A stretch of DNA of 38,270 nucleotides from Escherichia phage BUCT618: sequence record OM735461.1. One strand, written 5' to 3'. Positions 4,742 to 30,463 of this stretch are shown here, in pieces. Below the pieces are notes generated by a model. The model saw nothing but the letters and a program-made list of their open reading frames with translations, was not told the origin of the DNA and did not search any database. A program made the position numbers and the translations under genes. Every line of letters starts with the position of its first letter. Positions within the stretch are counted from its first letter, which is position 1.

Positions 4742-4974
4742 ACATCTTCTCAATAATCAATATGGCGCAGGCCGCCAACCCGAAGGCAGAAGTCACCATC
4801 CGCAGCGGTGGTCATGATGCCATCATCATAACCTGGTATTGGGATGGCCAGTACCTGAACCGCAGCTATTGCAAGGCTCGAATGACCGGTCATCGCTTAG
4901 GCGAATATGAGGCGTGGAGAATTGCGTTCAATGCGGTTGCTCAGATTATGGGAGTCGTGGGGTGTGCGAAATGA
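4738..4974 (+). CDS. Hypothetical protein
   Basis: 78-aa ORF, ATGA-coupled on both sides. Confidence 0.5.
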   Translation: MNIFSIINMAQAANPKAEVTIRSGGHDAIIITWYWDGQYLNRSYCKARMTGHRLGEYEAWRIAFNAVAQIMGVVGCAK

Positions 4975-5654
4975 TTATCTGGTCACTATTTGACGGTTCA
5001 GGTCTTATGGTCAAGCCGTGGGCGGAAGCAGGACATACTTGCTATTGTTTCAACTACGACGGAGCTGACCACGGTGACTACGCACGATTGGGCGCAAAAG
5101 TTGAACATGAAAATATCCACTATATAAACGCGTGGATTGATAATAAATTCGACTTCGACGTTGCGCCGGATATTATTTTCGCGTTCCCTCCGTGCACAGA
5201 CTTAGCCGTTAGCGGCGCGTCTCATTTCGAAACGAAGCGTAAGAAGAATGCAACGTTTCAGGTAGAGGCCGTGATTACATGTAAAGTGGCGGCTCGTCTG
5301 GCTAAAAGGTACAACGTACCTTATATGATTGAGAACCCGGTTAGCGTTCTTTCGTCTTTATGGCGCAAGCCTGACTACTCGTTCAATCCGTACGAATACG
5401 GCGGCTATTTACCCGAAGACGACACGCATCCAATGTTCCCTGAATACATAAAACCACGTGACGCATACCCTAAGAAGACATGTATTTGGGCCGGTAACGG
5501 TTTTGTCATGCCTGTTAAATCATGCGTTGCCGTCGGTGACGGGTACTCAAACCAACACAATAAATTAGGCGGTAAATCAGTGAGGACAAAAACAATCCGC
5601 AGCCTGACCCCGCGCGGATTTGCCCGTGCGGTATTTGAGGCTAACAAAGGTTGA
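4971..5654 (+). CDS. Compact DNA cytosine-C5 methyltransferase-like protein
   Basis: Motif I-like SLFDGSG, motif IV-like FPPCTDLAVSG, motif VI-like MIENPVS. ATGA-coupled start at 4971 (track start 4914 is upstream and in frame). Confidence 0.6.
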   Translation: MIIWSLFDGSGLMVKPWAEAGHTCYCFNYDGADHGDYARLGAKVEHENIHYINAWIDNKFDFDVAPDIIFAFPPCTDLAVSGASHFETKRKKNATFQVEAVITCKVAARLAKRYNVPYMIENPVSVLSSLWRKPDYSFNPYEYGGYLPEDDTHPMFPEYIKPRDAYPKKTCIWAGNGFVMPVKSCVAVGDGYSNQHNKLGGKSVRTKTIRSLTPRGFARAVFEANKG

Positions 5655-7376: not shown

Positions 7377-9143
7377 ATGAAGCAGCCACGATTTTACCAA
7401 ACAGAAGCAAAGGAGGCGGTGATTCACCGCATCCGTGAGAACTCGAAGAAAGGAGTCGCCAGCAGGATACTTGTTGATGCGGCGGCTGGTGCAGGGAAAA
7501 CCATCATGATGGCGATCATTGCCAAACACGTACATGAGCGAGGAGGGCGAGTATTGCAGATTGCGCGTCAGCCAATACTTGCCGAGCAGACCTATCGTGA
7601 GTTCTATGATTTTTCAGTACCGGCGGGGATGTACGCCGCAAAGTTCAATAAGCGCCAGGTATATCAGGTTACCGTAGGCACTGAGGGCACGATTGTTAAT
7701 GGCCTTGCTGACTTCAATAAACCGGTTGATTTGCTTCTTATCGACGAATCGCATCAGGTAGACATTGAGAACGAAGACACGCAATTCATGCGCATAATCA
7801 ATCATCTGGATGGAGTTTCGAAAAAAGCCGGTCGCCTTATGCATATCGTAGGAGTAACAGGTTCTCCATTCCGTGGAACCGCCCACCTTACCACGTTCGA
7901 CTTCTGGCAGGAGGTTGTTTACGACATCGGCGTCGACCGACTGACTGAGATGGGGTTCCTGTCGGTTCCCGTCTATGGGTTCCCTGATGCTGACGATGAC
8001 TCCCTGGATTTCTCCAGCGTGGATACTCGCAGCGGCTCATGGGAGTTCAGCGAAAAGGAACTCGACGAAATCGCCATGTCTGACGCTGGAAAGAAAAAAC
8101 TTGTGCGTATTCTGATGCAGGTCATTGAAAAGACCAAAGACCGGAACCAGCGGATAGTCTTTGCATCGACCAAGCGACACGCCAGGGAGATTCGGCGAAT
8201 CCTCATCGCACTGGGCATCGACAAGTCAAAGATTGGCCTTGTCACTGACGATTCCAGCGAGGCGGAGAAAGACCGCGTAATCAAGCTATCGAAGGAAGGA
8301 AAACTCGACTGGCTGATTAACGTGTCGGTGCTGACTACTGGCTTTAACTCGCCACTGATTGACGTGGTTGTTTACCTGCGCCCGATTGGTTCACTGGTGT
8401 TACTGATTCAGTCTATGGGGCGCGGCGCTCGCTTGCTTGAGGAGTGGATGAAAGAGGCCGGTTTCCATAAAGATAACTATCTGGTTCTGGACTATGCCGG
8501 AGTATTCGACAGGCTTGGGCATTTGCTGGACGACCCGCTTACAGGTGCGGCACTAGCGGAAAAAGGGCGCAAGTCAGGGAAAACAAAGTTATGCCAGCGT
8601 GAAGGTTGCGGGTGCGAAAACGGAATAGGCGCTCGGCGCTGTATCGCAAAGGATCCATCAGAACCTGATGGAAGGTGCTCGTTCTTCTGGGTTTCGCAAA
8701 CATGCCCAGACTGCGGAACAGAAAACGATATAGCAGCTTCTGAGTGCCGCAATCCGAAGTGCAAGCGTGAACTGCGTGACCCTAACAAAGAGCTTTTGCA
8801 TTCCCCATATTCTGATGACCAGCTTGTTGAGGTTAAATCATGGGAGATTACGCCAGCAGAAAACGGAAATGGCATCATGGTTAAGTTCAATCTTAAGGAT
8901 GAGCCAGAGCACGGCAACCCGGTTGTTTTTTATCCCACCGATAGCGAAGGGGCTAAGCGAATAACAATGAAACAGTTCATTGAGGTCTACTGCAGGAATC
9001 CTCGATGGCATCCAGAGTTTAAAGCGCAATTAAATCCACGTGGAATCATGAAATTAAAGCAGGCGTTAACCATGCCATCGCATATCTCTTACCGGATTAA
9101 CGGGCAAAACAAATTTGTTATCGGAAGAAGGCGCTTCTCATGA
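7377..9143 (+). CDS. Superfamily-2 DNA helicase (ResIII/DEAD-like) with C-terminal Cys-rich region
   Basis: Walker A AAAGAGKT, DESH box, helicase-C-like QSMGRGAR. Cys clusters CQREGCGC / CPDCG / CRNPKC. Confidence 0.8.
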   Translation: MKQPRFYQTEAKEAVIHRIRENSKKGVASRILVDAAAGAGKTIMMAIIAKHVHERGGRVLQIARQPILAEQTYREFYDFSVPAGMYAAKFNKRQVYQVTVGTEGTIVNGLADFNKPVDLLLIDESHQVDIENEDTQFMRIINHLDGVSKKAGRLMHIVGVTGSPFRGTAHLTTFDFWQEVVYDIGVDRLTEMGFLSVPVYGFPDADDDSLDFSSVDTRSGSWEFSEKELDEIAMSDAGKKKLVRILMQVIEKTKDRNQRIVFASTKRHAREIRRILIALGIDKSKIGLVTDDSSEAEKDRVIKLSKEGKLDWLINVSVLTTGFNSPLIDVVVYLRPIGSLVLLIQSMGRGARLLEEWMKEAGFHKDNYLVLDYAGVFDRLGHLLDDPLTGAALAEKGRKSGKTKLCQREGCGCENGIGARRCIAKDPSEPDGRCSFFWVSQTCPDCGTENDIAASECRNPKCKRELRDPNKELLHSPYSDDQLVEVKSWEITPAENGNGIMVKFNLKDEPEHGNPVVFYPTDSEGAKRITMKQFIEVYCRNPRWHPEFKAQLNPRGIMKLKQALTMPSHISYRINGQNKFVIGRRRFS

Positions 9144-19891: not shown

Positions 19892-19911
19892 AAAAAAGCC
19901 CCGTTAGGGGC
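19892..19911 (-). terminator. Rho-independent terminator ending the accessory island
   Basis: Minus strand GCCCC-taac-GGGGC followed by TTTTTT, directly after the stop at 19912. Confidence 0.75.
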
Positions 19912-20160
19912 CTAGAATTTCACTACTTTTGCTGATTTCACATTTGGTGGGTCAAAGTCAGGTACAAATATTGGCATCCAGTGGGTTGCTTCCCTTATGA
20001 CATATCCACCTATCTCCTTGAATCTTGGCCTGGAGAATCTTTCTGTCCCTGCTCTTTTACTGACCTCATATATGCAAAATGGCTGAATGTATGCGCCATT
20101 AAAAACGTGAACTATTTCCCCAACGGCAGGCAATCTCTCACTGCACTTAATCCATTCCAT
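19912..20160 (-). CDS. DUF551-like protein
   Basis: MEWIKCSERLP.. signature N-terminus of DUF551 phage proteins. Confidence 0.65.
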   Translation of the reverse strand: MEWIKCSERLPAVGEIVHVFNGAYIQPFCIYEVSKRAGTERFSRPRFKEIGGYVIREATHWMPIFVPDFDPPNVKSAKVVKF

Positions 20161-20163
20161 CAG

Positions 20164-20292
20164 TCAACCCTCATCTTCATAATCAGAAAAACACTTAGCA
20201 GAAAGGTTATCCCCATCGCAAAGCGTTGCTTTCCCGTACACCTCAAATATCCATTTTGCAAAATCCAGCGTAAATTCGTCATATGCTGTCAT
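20164..20292 (-). CDS. Hypothetical 42-aa protein (below the ORF-track cutoff)
   Basis: MTAYDEFTLDFAKWIFEVYGKATLCDGDNLSAKCFSDYEDEG. ATGA coupling with the upstream gene. Its stop lies 3 nt before the next ATG. Confidence 0.45.
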   Translation of the reverse strand: MTAYDEFTLDFAKWIFEVYGKATLCDGDNLSAKCFSDYEDEG

Positions 20293-20588
20293 TTCTTCAC
20301 CCCATACTTACGGTTAATATCATACTCACTGGTACACAGCAGGATAATGAACTCGATAAACGCAACGAAAAAGGTGATTCCAGTCCAGCAGAACAGAATG
20401 TACATCACCCCGGAAAACGGTCGCCCCAGGTAGAAGCGGTGAATGCCAATAAAACCGAAGAAGAAGCAAAGCAGCACCGCGGTAACTTTGCTCTTCGTGT
20501 AAACCTGTTGCTTCGCGCCGCAGTTAGGGCAATCGGTCGCTGATTCGTGGATTTGTGTGCCGCAAGCGCGGCAGTAAGTGTTGCTCAT
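20289..20588 (-). CDS. Zinc-ribbon + TM2-domain membrane protein
   Basis: CRACGTQ..CPNCG zinc ribbon, followed by two hydrophobic helices with GIHRFYLG (TM2-domain signature). Confidence 0.7.
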   Translation of the reverse strand: MSNTYCRACGTQIHESATDCPNCGAKQQVYTKSKVTAVLLCFFFGFIGIHRFYLGRPFSGVMYILFCWTGITFFVAFIEFIILLCTSEYDINRKYGVKK

Positions 20589-20824
20589 TTACCCTCCCAT
20601 GATATGTATTTTGCGTGAAGTTTGTTTCTCATTTCCTGTAAATGAAATTCTGGAACTGTTACAAAGTGCTCACTGTTATCGTCTCCCTCTGGTATGAACT
20701 CAAAAAGAACGCCGTCAATCCATCTCATGGTTGCCGACCAAATCTGTCCATTGTGGCACCAAATTGAAACAAACTGACCACTGCCGGGAAGTTCATCAAG
20801 AAAATCAATTGTGCTTTCAGTCAT
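20585..20824 (-). CDS. Hypothetical protein
   Basis: 79-aa ORF, ATGA-type coupling downstream. Confidence 0.5.
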   Translation of the reverse strand: MTESTIDFLDELPGSGQFVSIWCHNGQIWSATMRWIDGVLFEFIPEGDDNSEHFVTVPEFHLQEMRNKLHAKYISWEGK

Positions 20825-20854
20825 TTGTTAACCCTCGTAAAAACAGACCCATCA

Positions 20855-20881
20855 CTAAGCGCGGCAGTAGATGTTGCTCAT
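20855..20881 (-). pseudogene. Truncated 5' remnant (MSNIYCRA*) of a paralogue of the zinc-ribbon/TM2 gene
   Basis: ATGAGCAACATCTACTGCCGCGCTT differs at two positions from the start of the gene at 20588 (ATGAGCAACACTTACTGCCGCGCTT). It has its own SD-like GGGTGA. Confidence 0.5.
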
Positions 20882-20897
20882 TTTAATCACCCTTGTA

Positions 20898-21161
20898 TCA
20901 AATTTTACCTTCAGCCATCAGCCCTTCGACTAATGTCATTTTATAAGTCGCAGGCTTCCATGACTGCATTGCCCTTTCAGCGCCTTTGCGTGTTTTGTAA
21001 GGCTTAATGGATGGAACTATAGCGCTCACAACCCCCTGCCCATAACCTCTGTCTGTCTCCTGGAACACCCTGAAAAAGCCGGAGTCTTCTTTGACAACGA
21101 GTCGTTTAAAGGCATAAACACCAGTATCTTTGTTTAGGTAACGGCTAAGTATGATTTCCAT
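20898..21161 (-). CDS. Hypothetical protein, first gene of the accessory island
   Basis: 87-aa ORF, SD AAGGAG. Confidence 0.55.
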   Translation of the reverse strand: MEIILSRYLNKDTGVYAFKRLVVKEDSGFFRVFQETDRGYGQGVVSAIVPSIKPYKTRKGAERAMQSWKPATYKMTLVEGLMAEGKI

Positions 21162-21344
21162 GATTACTCCTTGTGGTGTTATTGGTGGGGTGGCGTGCTT
21201 CGTCGGTAGCCTCGGTTAAGTAACCGCACTAGCGTTCTCCGTTTCCGGTAGTGTGTGCGTTCTGGCCTCACGGTTGGGAATCCTGACACTACGATCAAGC
21301 CCCTGCGTTGCTCCTCTCCTGCTGCATCCTGCCGCCTCCCTATG
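21162..21344 (-). promoter_or_regulatory. Long GC-rich structured 5' leader (candidate cis-regulatory RNA / leader-peptide attenuator)
   Basis: About 180 nt between a strong promoter and the first island gene. Contains a GNRA hairpin CCG-GAAA-CGG and hairpin CGGTT-ACTT-AACCG. Pairings GTAGTGT/ACACTAC and CACTA/TAGTG are mutually exclusive. A 10-codon ORF with a good SD sits at 21327..21295. Confidence 0.4.
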
Positions 21345-21350
21345 TGTTGA

Positions 21351-21378
21351 ACTATACACCACATTTCTATTGTGTCAA
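21351..21378 (-). promoter_or_regulatory. Strong sigma70-like promoter (GGTTGACAC-N16-TATAGT)
   Basis: TTGACA at 21378..21373 and TATAGT at 21356..21351, immediately after the tail-tube terminator. Confidence 0.65.
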
Positions 21379-21391
21379 CCATTACATGCGT

Positions 21392-21411
21392 AAAAAAGGG
21401 GCCGAAGCCCC
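21392..21411 (-). terminator. Rho-independent terminator after the tail tube gene
   Basis: Minus strand GGGGC-ttcg-GCCCC followed by TTTTTT. Confidence 0.75.
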
Positions 21412-21418
21412 AATTTGT

Positions 21419-21832
21419 TTAATCCAGTGCCTGACCTGTATGGATGATATAGCCATCCACAAACTTGAAGGTGAATTGCACGATGGTTAACTCCTGCGCC
21501 TTCACCAGGGCCGGAGGCCGCGCCAGCATCGCCTCTTTTGCGCCGGCAACCTCGCCAGTGCTGTTTCGGTCAATCAACAGGAGTGGCAGCGGTTTGCCAG
21601 CCTCATAAAGCGCCTGCCATGCCGCCTTTGTCGGGCTTACGTCCTGCAAGGAGACAACGCAAGTGCCTGTTTTATCAAGGGATTTGACGAAAGCGCCACC
21701 ACCTTTAATGGAAGCGTAGGTGTTCCAGATGTCATTGTTAAATGTAAAGTTGAACATCTCGCCATTGGCTACAGCTCTTGCCGCCACTCCGCCCCAGCTT
21801 AATGTAACTTTCTCAGGGTTATAAATTGGCAC
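21419..21832 (-). CDS. Tail tube protein
   Basis: 137-aa ORF directly downstream of the sheath gene. Assigned by synteny. Confidence 0.7.
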   Translation of the reverse strand: MPIYNPEKVTLSWGGVAARAVANGEMFNFTFNNDIWNTYASIKGGGAFVKSLDKTGTCVVSLQDVSPTKAAWQALYEAGKPLPLLLIDRNSTGEVAGAKEAMLARPPALVKAQELTIVQFTFKFVDGYIIHTGQALD

Positions 21833-30386: not shown

Positions 30387-30463
30387 TGGCGCACACGGAC
30401 GGATTTGAACCTTCAATCAGCCGATTATAAGTCGGTTGCTTTAACCAATTAAGCTACGCATGC
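30387..30463 (-). tRNA. tRNA with anticodon UAU (Ile, AUA codon), CCA encoded
   Basis: Manual cloverleaf. Acceptor GCAUGCG/CGUGUGC (two G-U pairs). D arm GCUU/AAGC with GG in the loop. Anticodon loop C-U-UAU-A-A. T loop UUCAAAU. One A-C mismatch and one A-G mismatch in the stems. Confidence 0.8.

Follow-up and report, generated by a model that had tools for sequence, protein, structure and literature searches.

A predicted structured RNA family borne at the 5′ end of sigma70 transcripts in Enterobacterales phages

Promoter, leader and accessory island in phage BUCT618

The window analysed here is the whole stretch of 38,270 nucleotides from Escherichia phage BUCT618 (OM735461.1), and the features of the locus all lie on its minus strand. 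The tail-tube gene ends in an intrinsic terminator (21398..21411; GGGGCTTCGGCCCC followed by TTTTTT) that isolates the transcription unit downstream, and in several other phages a terminator is also found just 5′ of their copy of the element. A near-consensus sigma70 promoter follows at 21351..21378, in which TTGACA and TATAGT are separated by a 16-nt spacer (11/12 match), in agreement with an earlier sequence-only reading of this DNA. The transcription start predicted from the position of the -10 box and a short unpaired 5′ leader, CACAUA, occupy 21341..21346; ACAUA of this leader is kept in sequence types A, B, C and E. The conserved RNA domain begins about 5 nt past the predicted start and ends about 15 nt 5′ of the SD of the first accessory gene. 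It is followed by a C/A-rich, G-poor and unstructured linker, CACCAAUAACACCACA (21162..21187), which contains the SD AAGGAG at 21167-21172. The untranslated leader of about 180 nt, reaching the ATG at 21161, and its GC enrichment (0.58 at 21175-21324 vs 0.39-0.51 in the flanks) had both been correctly described by the earlier reading, as had the long ORF at 21179..21382 (67 aa), which indeed begins upstream of the -35 box.

The leader opens into an accessory island (19912..21161) with ORFs of 87, 79, 99, 42 and 82 aa, of which the 99-aa ORF carries a zinc ribbon plus TM2 and the 82-aa ORF is a DUF551 protein. The island is closed by an intrinsic terminator (19896..19913; a 7-bp stem followed by TTTTT) that immediately precedes the tail assembly chaperone gene. 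In two close relatives, L028 and L190, different genes stand behind the same promoter and RNA.

Fold of the RNA domain

The whole conserved domain, from the 5′ to the 3′ strand of P1, spans 153 nt (21188..21340) and is the sole match in the window to the covariance model R1 (171.5 bits, E=4e-45). In the predicted fold, helix P1 closes the domain; inside it lie the small hairpin P2, whose AGGA loop is invariant, helix P3, hairpin H3 and an arm of P3b, P4 and P5 that holds a large invariant internal loop. The closing helix is formed by GGGAGGCG (21333..21340) and CGCCACCC (21188..21195) and displays both-sided changes in 7/8 pairs, its variants including GGGCGGCG/CGCCGCCC, GACGGGC/GCCCGUC, GUCGAC/GUCGAC and GGCAG/CUGCC, while in L022 an A-U replaces the terminal G-C. 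The sequence CCACCCC, which the earlier reading had taken as a 3′ part abutting the downstream SD, is instead the 3′ strand of this helix. The P2 hairpin GCA-GGA-UGC (21324..21332) presents a conserved A(A)GGA(Y) loop, and AGGA is retained throughout stems as different as GCA/UGC, GCAA/UUGC, UGC/GCA and UAUA/UAUA. At the DNA level the P2 loop is CAGGAT, which conforms to the -10-like NANNAT and lies at about +15..+20. Junction J2/3 (21315..21323) comprises AGCA and the invariant GGAGA, and GGAGAGG is invariant across all copies.

The 5′ strand of P3, GGAGC (21310..21314), pairs with GCU-A-CC (21205-21210); the helix is 100% paired, and 23 copies have A-U and 16 have G-C as its central pair. 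The 3′ strand GCUACC is contiguous with the invariant junction GACGAAG (together 21198..21210), and AGGCYACCGACGARG is kept in all copies. P3 competes with an alternative helix Z, which uses GGGGC. The 3′ strand GCYACC can pair with either GGRGC (P3) or GGGGC (helix Z) but not with both, each pairing being at least 99.5% compatible in all copies, and helix Z displays one-sided GU/GC changes only. Hairpin H3 (21276..21303) is built from GGG/CCC, an internal loop, CUUGA/UCAGG and an 8-nt loop, UCGUAGUG. Four independent compensatory changes are found in H3b, namely A-U to U-A in KA2-1, G-C to A-U in KMI8, U-A to G-U in Lumpael and C-G to U-A in L201. The junction strand that follows, AACCGUGA (21268..21275), is invariant in 39/39 aligned copies.

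In the distal arm, the P3b 5′ strand CAG (21262..21264) faces 21218-21220 (CUU in the window, leaving a C.U mismatch at its end, and CUG in relatives); the helix is 95.9% paired, with variants CAG/CUG, CGA/UCG, UAUAU/AUAUG and CGUA/UAUG. P4 joins CGCAC (21255..21259) to GUGCG (21225-21229) and is 100% paired with up to five pair types per position, including U.G in L184. P5 (21239..21248), a 3-bp helix with a tetraloop, is the GNRA hairpin CCG-GAAA-CGG noticed previously and proves to be a true helix, 100% paired and with both-sided changes in 3/3 pairs (CCG/CGG, GCC/GGC, CCC/GGG, CUC/GAG). The internal loop between P4 and P5 is formed by (A)CACU on the 5′ side (21250..21254), where CACU is invariant, and by the invariant AGAACGC on the 3′ side (21232..21238). 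CACU is complementary to AGUG of the H3 loop (98% paired, no variation), a possible pseudoknot on which covariation is uninformative since the pairing is invariant. This AGUG/CACU core is what remains of the GTAGTGT/ACACTAC pairing of the earlier reading, the rest of which is not kept. Its competing CACTA/TAGTG pairing is specific to the window/Jilinvirus sequence type, and so is the proposed CGGTT-ACTT-AACCG hairpin, which overlaps the covarying P4 and P3b.

The fold was evaluated on a curated alignment of 39 distinct copies with helices P1, P2, P3, H3, P3b, P4 and P5, in which 95.6% of the cells are paired, a percentage inflated by the alignment having been made with the structure in mind. 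Both-sided changes occur at 23 pairs (0/500 shuffles), and the covariation score of 0.408 compares with 0.122 for shuffles (0/500) and with no more than 0.072 when the partners are slid. A model-made alignment gave 87% paired cells and a covariation score of 0.383 vs 0.134. The occurrence of G.U at 10 pair positions and of A.C at 3 fixes the transcribed strand, and about 45 junction and loop nucleotides are without any variation across the aligned copies. R1 matches every genuine copy, scoring 41 copies outside the window at 141-183 bits, and matches none of about 27 decoy loci.

Thermodynamics gave a different picture. The MFE of the window shows no stability gain over shuffled sequence (z-score 0.02) in the folding check proposed earlier, the MFE folds disagree among sequence types, and the covariation-supported fold is not the MFE in the window (-30.8 vs -45.9 kcal/mol). 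On thermodynamics alone the element would have been wrongly dismissed. RNAalifold, applied to the raw MAFFT alignment, missed P1 and P4 because these helices are misaligned there, and proposed the long-range helix Z and a hairpin H3′; the latter is contradicted by the compensatory changes in KA2-1, KMI8, Lumpael and L201. The homology search for covarying pairs, another of the checks proposed, returned some 170 phage records and strong covariation. This conservation and covariation in unrelated phages lend strong support to the earlier suggestion that the leader contains a functional structured RNA. On the aligned sequences, the region 21340..21188 is near certain to be a real and new structured RNA, a member of a previously undescribed family.

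Distribution, genomic setting and relation to known RNA families

Two blastn searches matched the 150-180 nt stretch in 171 and 168 phage records, mostly in unannotated intergenic DNA, although some records annotate CDSs across the region. Among these roughly 170 records the copies are 79-96% identical, and the carriers, which include Dhillonvirus, Warwickvirus, Changchunvirus, Jilinvirus, Sortsnevirus and Murrayvirus, are only phages that look lytic, comprising unrelated sipho- and myoviruses of Enterobacterales. The element was not found in the PLSDB plasmids or in 5,426 complete E. coli genomes, and pattern scans of viral and metagenome sequence added one further type only, L201; the family looks sequence-narrow. 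In every phage type a -10 box lies about 7 nt 5′ of P1, aligned at equal distance, and P1 begins 2-6 nt from the predicted 5′ end; the HK578 record itself annotates a promoter at the element. The element is always on the coding strand, ahead of a co-oriented ORF, and no copy is uncoupled from a promoter. In every copy the RNA is predicted to be transcribed among the first nucleotides made from a sigma70 promoter. Between the window and Jilinvirus, similarity (94-96%) sets in near the -10 box and does not reach beyond P1, and the sequence comparison shows that the -10 box plus RNA moves among unrelated lytic Enterobacterales phages as a portable unit.

Conservation ends within about 3 nt of P1. 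N-CCA or N-CCU stands directly 3′ of P1 in many copies, and this CCA-like tail differs among close relatives (ACCA vs AUCA; ACCA vs ACUCA). A comparable A/C-rich linker follows P1 in all types, often with WWAAC; as a boxA-like signal this motif was rejected, the GCUC half of boxA being missing, and is kept as a weak lead only. No copy has a terminator 3′ of P1, a hairpin plus U tract being absent from the next 130 nt; conserved anti-SD pairing is likewise lacking, the SD sitting in the unstructured linker. The first ORF starts 35-60 nt past GACGAAG in most copies; PT1 and Bas97 depart from this, their first long ORF lying at a distance of 111 nt, beyond an additional hairpin. The ORFs that come first downstream are unrelated from one phage group to the next, which speaks against both a metabolite riboswitch of the classical kind and attenuation by a leader peptide. 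The window, and most other loci where enough downstream sequence is available, have a strong same-strand terminator 0.5-3 kb downstream, whereas none was found within 6 kb downstream of the element in IME279. In HK578 the element heads a 22-gene, ~15-kb operon, with a strong terminator-like hairpin 482 nt downstream, directly after the first gene. A phage-encoded partner protein was sought and rejected: the window phage and HK578 have only one protein in common, a widespread DNA methyltransferase.

The element is unmatched by the 4,227 covariance models of Rfam 15 at the gathering threshold or at E<=10, in keeping with the earlier failure to match it to a riboswitch. In the whole window the gathering scan reported only a tRNA at 30390-30463, and the permissive scan (E<=10) of 20800-21700 gave one chance snoRNA match, outside the element. 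ARAGORN, run on the correct strand with default and relaxed settings, found no tRNA-like or tmRNA structure, and with the Rfam tRNA and tmRNA models also negative, a tRNA or tmRNA likeness was discarded. A resemblance to 5S rRNA (GAUNGUAGUGU) is not significant, 142/500 shuffles scoring equally well. The candidate CsrA-type motifs of the element are one invariant hairpin-loop AGGA (P2) and the single-stranded invariant GGAGAGG, a GGA in H3 being lost in L201. In the literature on these phage genera, structured RNAs, CsrA and antitermination, no description of the element was found.

Modes of action and comparison with known systems

The preferred reading, to which we give a probability of roughly 35%, is a put-like nascent-RNA element acting in cis on the host RNA polymerase or on the fate of the transcript. 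The element is self-contained, with neither a linked phage protein nor a riboswitch platform, and would therefore act through a conserved host component; its fixed 5′-terminal position makes action in cis, while the RNA is nascent, most likely. By the model of HK022 putL, the element would fold right behind the promoter, possibly aided by a sigma70 pause at the -10-like CAGGAT in P2, and the folded RNA may attach to the host RNA polymerase during elongation, or to a different host factor. The transcript could then be elongated through terminators or Rho sites, or be otherwise protected, and expression of any downstream genes would thereby be guaranteed. Several observations count against the put-like reading. 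The promoter-genes-terminator layout is also that of an ordinary transcription unit, and in the window read-through would extend an early-type transcript into tail genes of the late class, with no obvious benefit. The AGGA loop suits a -10-like pause signal and a site of the CsrA type alike, the end-joining by P1 and the stop of conservation at P1 suit a discrete released RNA equally well, and IME279 lacks a terminator within the 6 kb inspected.

The main rival, possible if doubtful, is a stand-alone trans-acting stable RNA, cut from the 5′ end of the operon transcript to serve as sponge or decoy for a host protein. Release would occur, for example, by RNase E in the A/C-rich linker 3′ of P1, and targets would include CsrA or a defence or RNA-processing factor. 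As in tRNA, 6S RNA and Y RNA, the two ends are joined, here by P1, conservation gives way to unstructured linker within about 3 nt of it, often through N-CCA or N-CCU, the unit carries its own promoter with the downstream genes irrelevant, and the carriers are only phages that look lytic. CsrA sites are A(N)GGA motifs, preferably in hairpin loops, and the invariant AGGA loop with GGAGAGG 12-14 nt away resembles a pair of them; one or two conserved GGA sites are, however, few for a sponge. Moreover, every copy is promoter-coupled with a co-oriented ORF downstream and lacks a terminator of its own, the CCA-like tail varies between close relatives, and ARAGORN finds nothing tRNA-like. An Hfq-type sRNA gene was rejected, its own Rho-independent 3′ terminator being missing in every copy. 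Less likely is a 5′ stabiliser and translation-enhancing leader, in which the 5′-terminal P1 and compact fold would block 5′-end-dependent attack by RppH/RNase E, and the CA-rich linker would leave the ribosome-binding site accessible. Binding of a host protein, for instance CsrA, may add to this, as has been reported for CsrA at the 5′ end of flhDC mRNA. The start of P1 in all types at 2-6 nt from the predicted 5′ terminus, the unstructured linker before the SD with the first ORF 35-60 nt past GACGAAG in most copies, and a portable cassette that suits any downstream gene agree with such a role. A simple hairpin would nevertheless be enough for it, leaving some 45 invariant unpaired nucleotides and seven helices at 79-96% identity unexplained, and in PT1 and Bas97 the 111 nt with an intervening hairpin fit poorly.

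The anatomy of the domain, a multi-helix junction with covarying helices and an invariant core, is that of an aptamer, and P3 and helix Z are mutually exclusive on the 3′ strand GCYACC, as a riboswitch sensing a metabolite or second messenger for the downstream genes would have it. That reading is improbable nonetheless: no terminator or SD sequestration overlaps the element to serve as expression platform, no terminator lies within 130 nt, conserved anti-SD pairing is absent, the downstream genes share no function or single pathway, and Rfam riboswitch models remain unmatched even at E<=10. Very unlikely is a replication primer or origin transcript, a structured promoter-proximal RNA forming a persistent hybrid in the manner of ColE1 RNA II or the T4/T7 origin promoters. 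The element does lie 3′ of primase in Jilinvirus and of DNA helicase in KA2-1 and MQ-4, adjoins helicase-primase in Dhillonvirus and is near helicase in PHB17. In the window and its relatives, however, it belongs to a tail-gene accessory island far from replication genes, the association may just reflect early regions that hold both sigma70 promoters and replication genes, and no AT-rich unwinding element or repeats occur 3′ of it. Scarcely credible at all is the model of the earlier reading, an attenuator driven by translation of a 10-codon uORF with two exclusive hairpins, or else a protein-coding stretch. The mini-ORF does exist in the window (ATG 21327 to TGA 21295) and, with its upstream GGGAGG, in types A and B, and CDSs are annotated over the region in some records. 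It is not conserved: the ATG is missing in Dhillonvirus copies, which have a different ATG in another frame, Warwickvirus and Changchunvirus have TTG, and 1-2 nt indels in P2, junctions and linkers break the frame. Substitutions fall as compensatory pairs, not at third codon positions, the alternative hairpins are type-specific, and a terminator is absent. The leader-peptide attenuator was rejected on these grounds, and the riboswitch-like mechanism suggested with it is left without a conserved upstream ORF, switch, terminator or SD-sequestering platform.

A wider proposal is that the element represents a new class of large, portable, promoter-coupled RNA, a cassette that lytic Enterobacterales phages would pass among themselves and that would reprogram a host machine without a phage protein; we regard this as tentative, at somewhat under an even chance. 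The evidence is compatible with two forms of it: a processive antiterminator or anti-Rho device that consists of RNA only and far exceeds put in size, or a decoy RNA that would neutralise a conserved defence or RNA-binding factor of the host. Extreme conservation, transfer as a unit and absence from the plasmids and E. coli genomes searched point to a conserved host component that is important in lytic infection. If confirmed, the element would define a new family of large structured RNAs, strongly backed by covariation, in well-studied, tractable coliphages, its carriers including HK578, SECphi18 and several BASEL collection phages such as Bas84 and Bas97, in which it has so far been overlooked or mis-annotated as hypothetical CDSs. 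Either leading mechanism, if true, would provide phages with a protein-independent RNA device, for nascent-RNA control of RNAP or as a decoy, and synthetic biology could gain a compact insulating or antiterminating 5′ cassette. At minimum, the annotation of some 170 phage genomes is corrected, and an Rfam entry can draw on a covariance model and a structure.

Among known systems, HK022 put offers the closest guide to the preferred reading. The put RNAs (putL and putR) of this lambdoid phage are processive antitermination RNAs that suppress termination and pausing in cis, in dependence on the zinc-binding domain of RNAP beta′. putL lies just 3′ of PL, carries a -10-like NANNAT and affects, in cis, terminators many kb further downstream, and HK022 put RNA measures about 70 nt with two stem-loops (PMC9378689). 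Similarly, the present element is phage-encoded, lies directly 3′ of a sigma70 promoter, as putL does of an early promoter, has a -10-like NANNAT early in its transcribed region, needs no linked phage protein, and heads operons with downstream terminators, standing 3′ of the promoter and ahead of terminators in most loci. In contrast, its sequence is unlike that of put and much more conserved, its 153 nt and seven helices depart from the put size, and its hosts are lytic sipho- and myoviruses rather than lambdoid temperate phages. Riboswitch aptamers share with the element a 5′ UTR position, a closing P1, covarying helices around invariant junction nucleotides and the alternative pairing of one 3′ strand (P3 vs helix Z), and differ in having a terminator/SD platform, related downstream genes and Rfam models that match.

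CsrB and CsrC are CsrA sponges with many GGA sites, and the flhDC 5′ leader is protected by CsrA. The element resembles such CsrA/RsmA-binding RNAs in a hairpin loop A(N)GGA kept despite a stem wholly replaced in L201, in a second invariant GGA 12-14 nt downstream and in its location at the transcript 5′ end. It differs in offering a single conserved hairpin-loop GGA, a candidate site, against the many of the sponges, and the bulk of its conserved structure is without counterpart in Csr RNAs. Phage tRNAs and the T4 species 1/2 RNAs are stable phage RNAs embedded in operons. With these the element shares a terminal helix that joins the ends, frequent N-CCA/N-CCU and the lack of its own terminator, while it is set apart by the absence of a cloverleaf or T-arm, by its variable CCA-like tail and by its constant coupling to a promoter.

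The leader and its conserved RNA domain

All features of this locus lie on the minus strand of the window. An intrinsic terminator (21411-21398) marks the end of the tail-tube gene (21832..21419, phrog_280) and is followed by a near-consensus sigma70 promoter, TTGACA-16-TATAGT (21378-21351, 11/12 match), and, after an untranslated stretch, by the ATG (21161) of an 87-aa ORF, the first of the accessory island. The GC content of the leader is 0.58 vs 0.39-0.51 in the surroundings; the promoter, leader length and GC contrast described in the sequence-only reading are thus physically there. The island (19912-21161) holds five genes (phrog_27467, phrog_6314, a zinc-ribbon/TM2 membrane protein, a 42-aa ORF and a DUF551 protein) and is closed by a second terminator (19913-19896) just ahead of the tail assembly chaperone gene, so that it sits between the tail tube and chaperone genes with one terminator on each side. 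Its gene content varies among close relatives (window vs loci L028 and L190); what stays constant is the promoter with its RNA, plus the TM2/zinc-ribbon gene and a DUF551 gene. For the 99-aa zinc-ribbon and TM2 protein, a role in superinfection exclusion or defence is possible. The phage is a novel small myovirus with only distant likeness to Yersinia phage PY100.

The earlier failure to recognise a known riboswitch was confirmed by cmscan with all 4,227 Rfam 15 families, which left the leader blank even at E<=10. Over the whole window the sole match was a phage-encoded tRNA-Ile with anticodon UAU (30387-30463, -, 61 bits), with which ARAGORN concurs; this tRNA decodes the rare AUA codon.

The element is a 153-nt domain (21340..21188); the transcription start and the 5' and 3' ends of the RNA are predicted positions. 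It was modelled from an alignment anchored on invariant blocks with helices derived by hand, and the model was then put to three tests. RNAalifold on the MAFFT alignment recovered the fold only partly because MAFFT misaligned the variable helices. The covariance model R1, which combines the MAFFT alignment with the hand-derived structure, recovered 36/36 distinct copies then collected (159-183 bits), four more INPHARED copies (152-177 bits) and the divergent locus L201 (141 bits), hit one site only in the window (21176-21343) and gave no match at E<=1 on ~27 decoy loci. Pairing holds for 87% of cells in the model-made alignment, with a covariation score of 0.383 vs 0.134 shuffled (0/500) and <=0.097 for slid partners. 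The curated alignment A4 (39 distinct copies, each row verified as genuine sequence) has 95.6% of cells paired, both-side changes in 23 of 43 pairs and a score of 0.408 vs 0.122 shuffled (0/500) and <=0.072 for slid partners; it was shaped with the structure in mind, and analyses A3 and A2, which are less biased, point the same way at lower percentages. Since the sequences represent about seven lineages, independent compensatory events are fewer than the cell counts suggest. Ten pair positions show G.U and three A.C, which settles that the functional strand is the transcribed one. The proposal of a structured leader is therefore borne out by covariation and by homology (~170 matching phage records), whereas the folding energy of the 196-nt leader, -48.5 vs -48.6 kcal/mol for dinucleotide shuffles (z = 0.02), does not set it apart. 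The supported fold is not the minimum-energy one (-30.8 vs -45.9 kcal/mol in the window), as is usual where tertiary contacts or a partner hold RNA junctions.

P1 (21340-21333 with 21195-21188) is compensatory in seven of eight pairs and occurs as GGGCGGCG/CGCCGCCC, GACGGGC/GCCCGUC, GUCGAC/GUCGAC and GGCAG/CUGCC, with A-U replacing the terminal G-C in L022. The stem of P2 (21332-21324) is wholly replaceable (GCA/UGC, GCAA/UUGC, UAUA/UAUA) around an invariant A(A)GGA(Y) loop. P3 (21314-21310 with 21210-21205) and P4 (21259-21255 with 21229-21225) are 100% paired, the former with one pair A-U in 23 copies and G-C in 16, the latter with <=5 pair types per position. H3 (21303-21276) shows four independent compensatory events (KA2-1, KMI8, Lumpael, L201) and P3b (21264-21262 with 21220-21218) four sequence versions. 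P5 (21248-21239), also 100% paired, is the GNRA hairpin CCG-GAAA-CGG noticed earlier. About 45 unpaired nucleotides are invariant in A4 (GGAGA, RACGCA, AACCGUGA, CACU, AGAACGC, GACGARG). In type D copies (L008 1989-2010 and other Dhillonvirus copies) two AGGA motifs stand side by side, ACAGGAUGCAGGACGCA, with AGGAC now forming the P2 loop and AGGAU directly 5' of it; to judge by these motifs, type D looks as if it retains both the loop GGA and the NANNAT sequence considered below.

The other strings singled out from sequence alone are present in the window, but the mini-ORF (21327..21295), the CGGTT-ACTT-AACCG hairpin and the CACTA/TAGTG pairing lack conservation across types. The mini-ORF was rejected: its ATG is missing in Dhillonvirus, where another ATG opens a different frame, and is TTG in Warwickvirus and Changchunvirus, and its frame is wrecked by 1-2 nt indels in P2, junctions and linkers. 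The CGGTT hairpin and CACTA/TAGTG, which overlap P4 and P3b, are confined to the window/Jilinvirus type, and CCACCCC, from the 3' part described as abutting the downstream SD, proves to be the 3' strand of P1. From the proposed GTAGTGT/ACACTAC pairing a conserved core survives, the full strings not being kept: base pairing is possible between the H3-loop AGUG and the invariant CACU in the internal loop of P4/P5, a pairing beyond the reach of covariation whose fourth pair is weakened by a G-to-A change in three lineages. The alternative helix Z (GGGGC with the 3' strand GCYACC) reaches 99.5% compatibility, but all its changes are one-sided (GU/GC), and the H3' hairpin that goes with it was discarded, being broken by the compensatory changes in H3. 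Deposited CDSs over the element were rejected as well, namely QIG65642.1 of PT1 (L003 1990-2196, opposite strand), Bas97_0052 (L002 2063-2182) and the N-terminal extension of Bas84_0050 (L010 1999-2682); these and the overlapping 3' end of the PHB17 methyltransferase (L009 1340-2098) are probably spurious or over-extended annotations.

Distribution and genomic context

A blastn search of 50,697 phage records with the leader as query returned 150-180 nt matches at 79-96% identity, covering window ~21360..21174 and lying mostly in unannotated intergenic DNA of the carriers, which are mutually unrelated phage groups. Most are Dhillonvirus (e.g. HK578, SECphi18, several BASEL phages); the rest include Drexlerviridae such as Warwickvirus (swan01, tunus, JK16) and KMI8, Changchunvirus PHB17, KA2-1, Serratia phage MQ-4, the Jilinvirus myoviruses PT1, Alux-21, HeidiAbel_Bas97 and Arya, Sortsnevirus IME279 and sortkaff, and Murrayvirus Lumpael. 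Window-Jilinvirus similarity reaches 94-96% only from about the -10 box to the element end. In PQ843332.1 (Escherichia phage P-GXEC-L2P5, 88.6 kb) the element matched at three places, which need not mean a true multi-copy genome, as the record may have been concatenated or assembled from a mixture. Pattern scans of IMG/VR and metagenomes added ~30 copies. Those at L028/L188, L184 and L190 belong to phages closely related to the window phage, and L201 (IMGVR_UViG_3300030464_000002, 7953-8124, -) represents a single new, divergent type. This most divergent copy has its P2 stem swapped for UAUA/UAUA with the AGGA loop intact, and new variants of P1, P4 and H3b; its existence suggests still more distant relatives, out of reach of exact-pattern scans. 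Window-type and Dhillonvirus-type sequences had zero matches in 72,556 PLSDB plasmids and in 5,426 complete E. coli genomes with their prophages, so that absence from bacterial genomes refers to E. coli and plasmid collections only.

In every group the -10 box is aligned ~7 nt 5' of the first conserved nucleotide, often with a terminator just upstream, and in HK578 the depositors' own, independent promoter annotation coincides exactly with it. The element always follows the strand of the downstream genes, which are unrelated between groups and different even among the window phage's close relatives. No copy has a terminator directly after the element; the stretch up to the first ORF's SD is an A/C-rich, G-poor linker, which in PT1, Bas97, Alux-21 and MQ-4 contains an extra GC hairpin with no U tract. 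Most copies have N-CCA or N-CCU right behind P1 (window linker 21176-21187), and a recurring WWAAC (UUUAAC, AUUAAC, AAUAAC) weakly resembles the boxA 3' half and also looks like single-stranded RNA of the rut or RNase E type. The element stands at the head of a 22-gene, ~15-kb early operon in HK578. There, 482 nt downstream and right behind the first gene, lies a strong terminator-like hairpin (L202 34712-34731, -; GGCCCGC...GCGGGCC, seven GC pairs, then a U tract), an arrangement resembling lambda N-tL1. Strong terminators also occur 0.5-3 kb downstream in the window, its relatives, the Jilinviruses, L039, L022, L201 and PHB17. The window phage and HK578 have no common protein besides the common-type DNA methyltransferase phrog_757 (window 4914-5654, +, 62% identical to HK578_032), and hence no phage-encoded partner is apparent.

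Class, candidate mechanisms and comparison with put

Being absent from Rfam and without description in full-text literature searches by sequence, phage genus and topic, the element is classed as a new RNA family. Its large sequence-invariant core, fixed extreme-5' position on a sigma70 transcript, horizontal mobility as '-10 box plus RNA', indifference to downstream genes, lack of an expression platform or linked phage protein, and restriction to lytic-looking Enterobacterales phages jointly point to a conserved host partner. By analogy with putL of phage HK022, our tentative preference (probability about 0.35) is for an RNA that would act in cis while nascent, either on the elongation complex or by influencing what becomes of the transcript that carries it.

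A domain freed by linker cleavage and then acting in trans as a sponge or decoy is possible, if doubtful: P1 brings both ends together, conservation ends at P1, the AGGA hairpin and GGAGAGG look like CsrA sites and N-CCA or N-CCU is frequent at the 3' side, but this CCA-like tail differs among close relatives. It is unlikely that the element serves as a 5' stabiliser and translation enhancer. A riboswitch, for which neither an Rfam match nor an expression platform was found in the leader, is improbable, and a replication primer RNA more improbable still; an upstream-ORF attenuator or a coding sequence, given start codons and frames that change between types, has a negligible chance. Against the preferred cis-acting, putL-like reading, the promoter-to-terminator layout fits an ordinary transcription unit too.

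HK022 putL lies directly downstream of PL, is protein-independent and suppresses terminators many kb distant, and its -10-like NANNAT is thought to give a sigma-dependent pause aiding folding (PMC9378689). Every element type likewise has CAGGAT or AAGGAT at ~+10 to +20 from the predicted start, with the exceptions in form that it lies just 5' of P2 in type D and reads CAGAAT in L012. The likeness extends to the HK578 operon, with its terminator-like hairpin after the first gene, and to the strong terminators downstream of the element in the window and the other loci listed with it above. In contrast, the element is twice the size of put and has no sequence relation to it. Tests for put and for riboswitches each showed defining features to be missing, so it is placed in neither family; in functional likeness it stands closest to put or a riboswitch aptamer.
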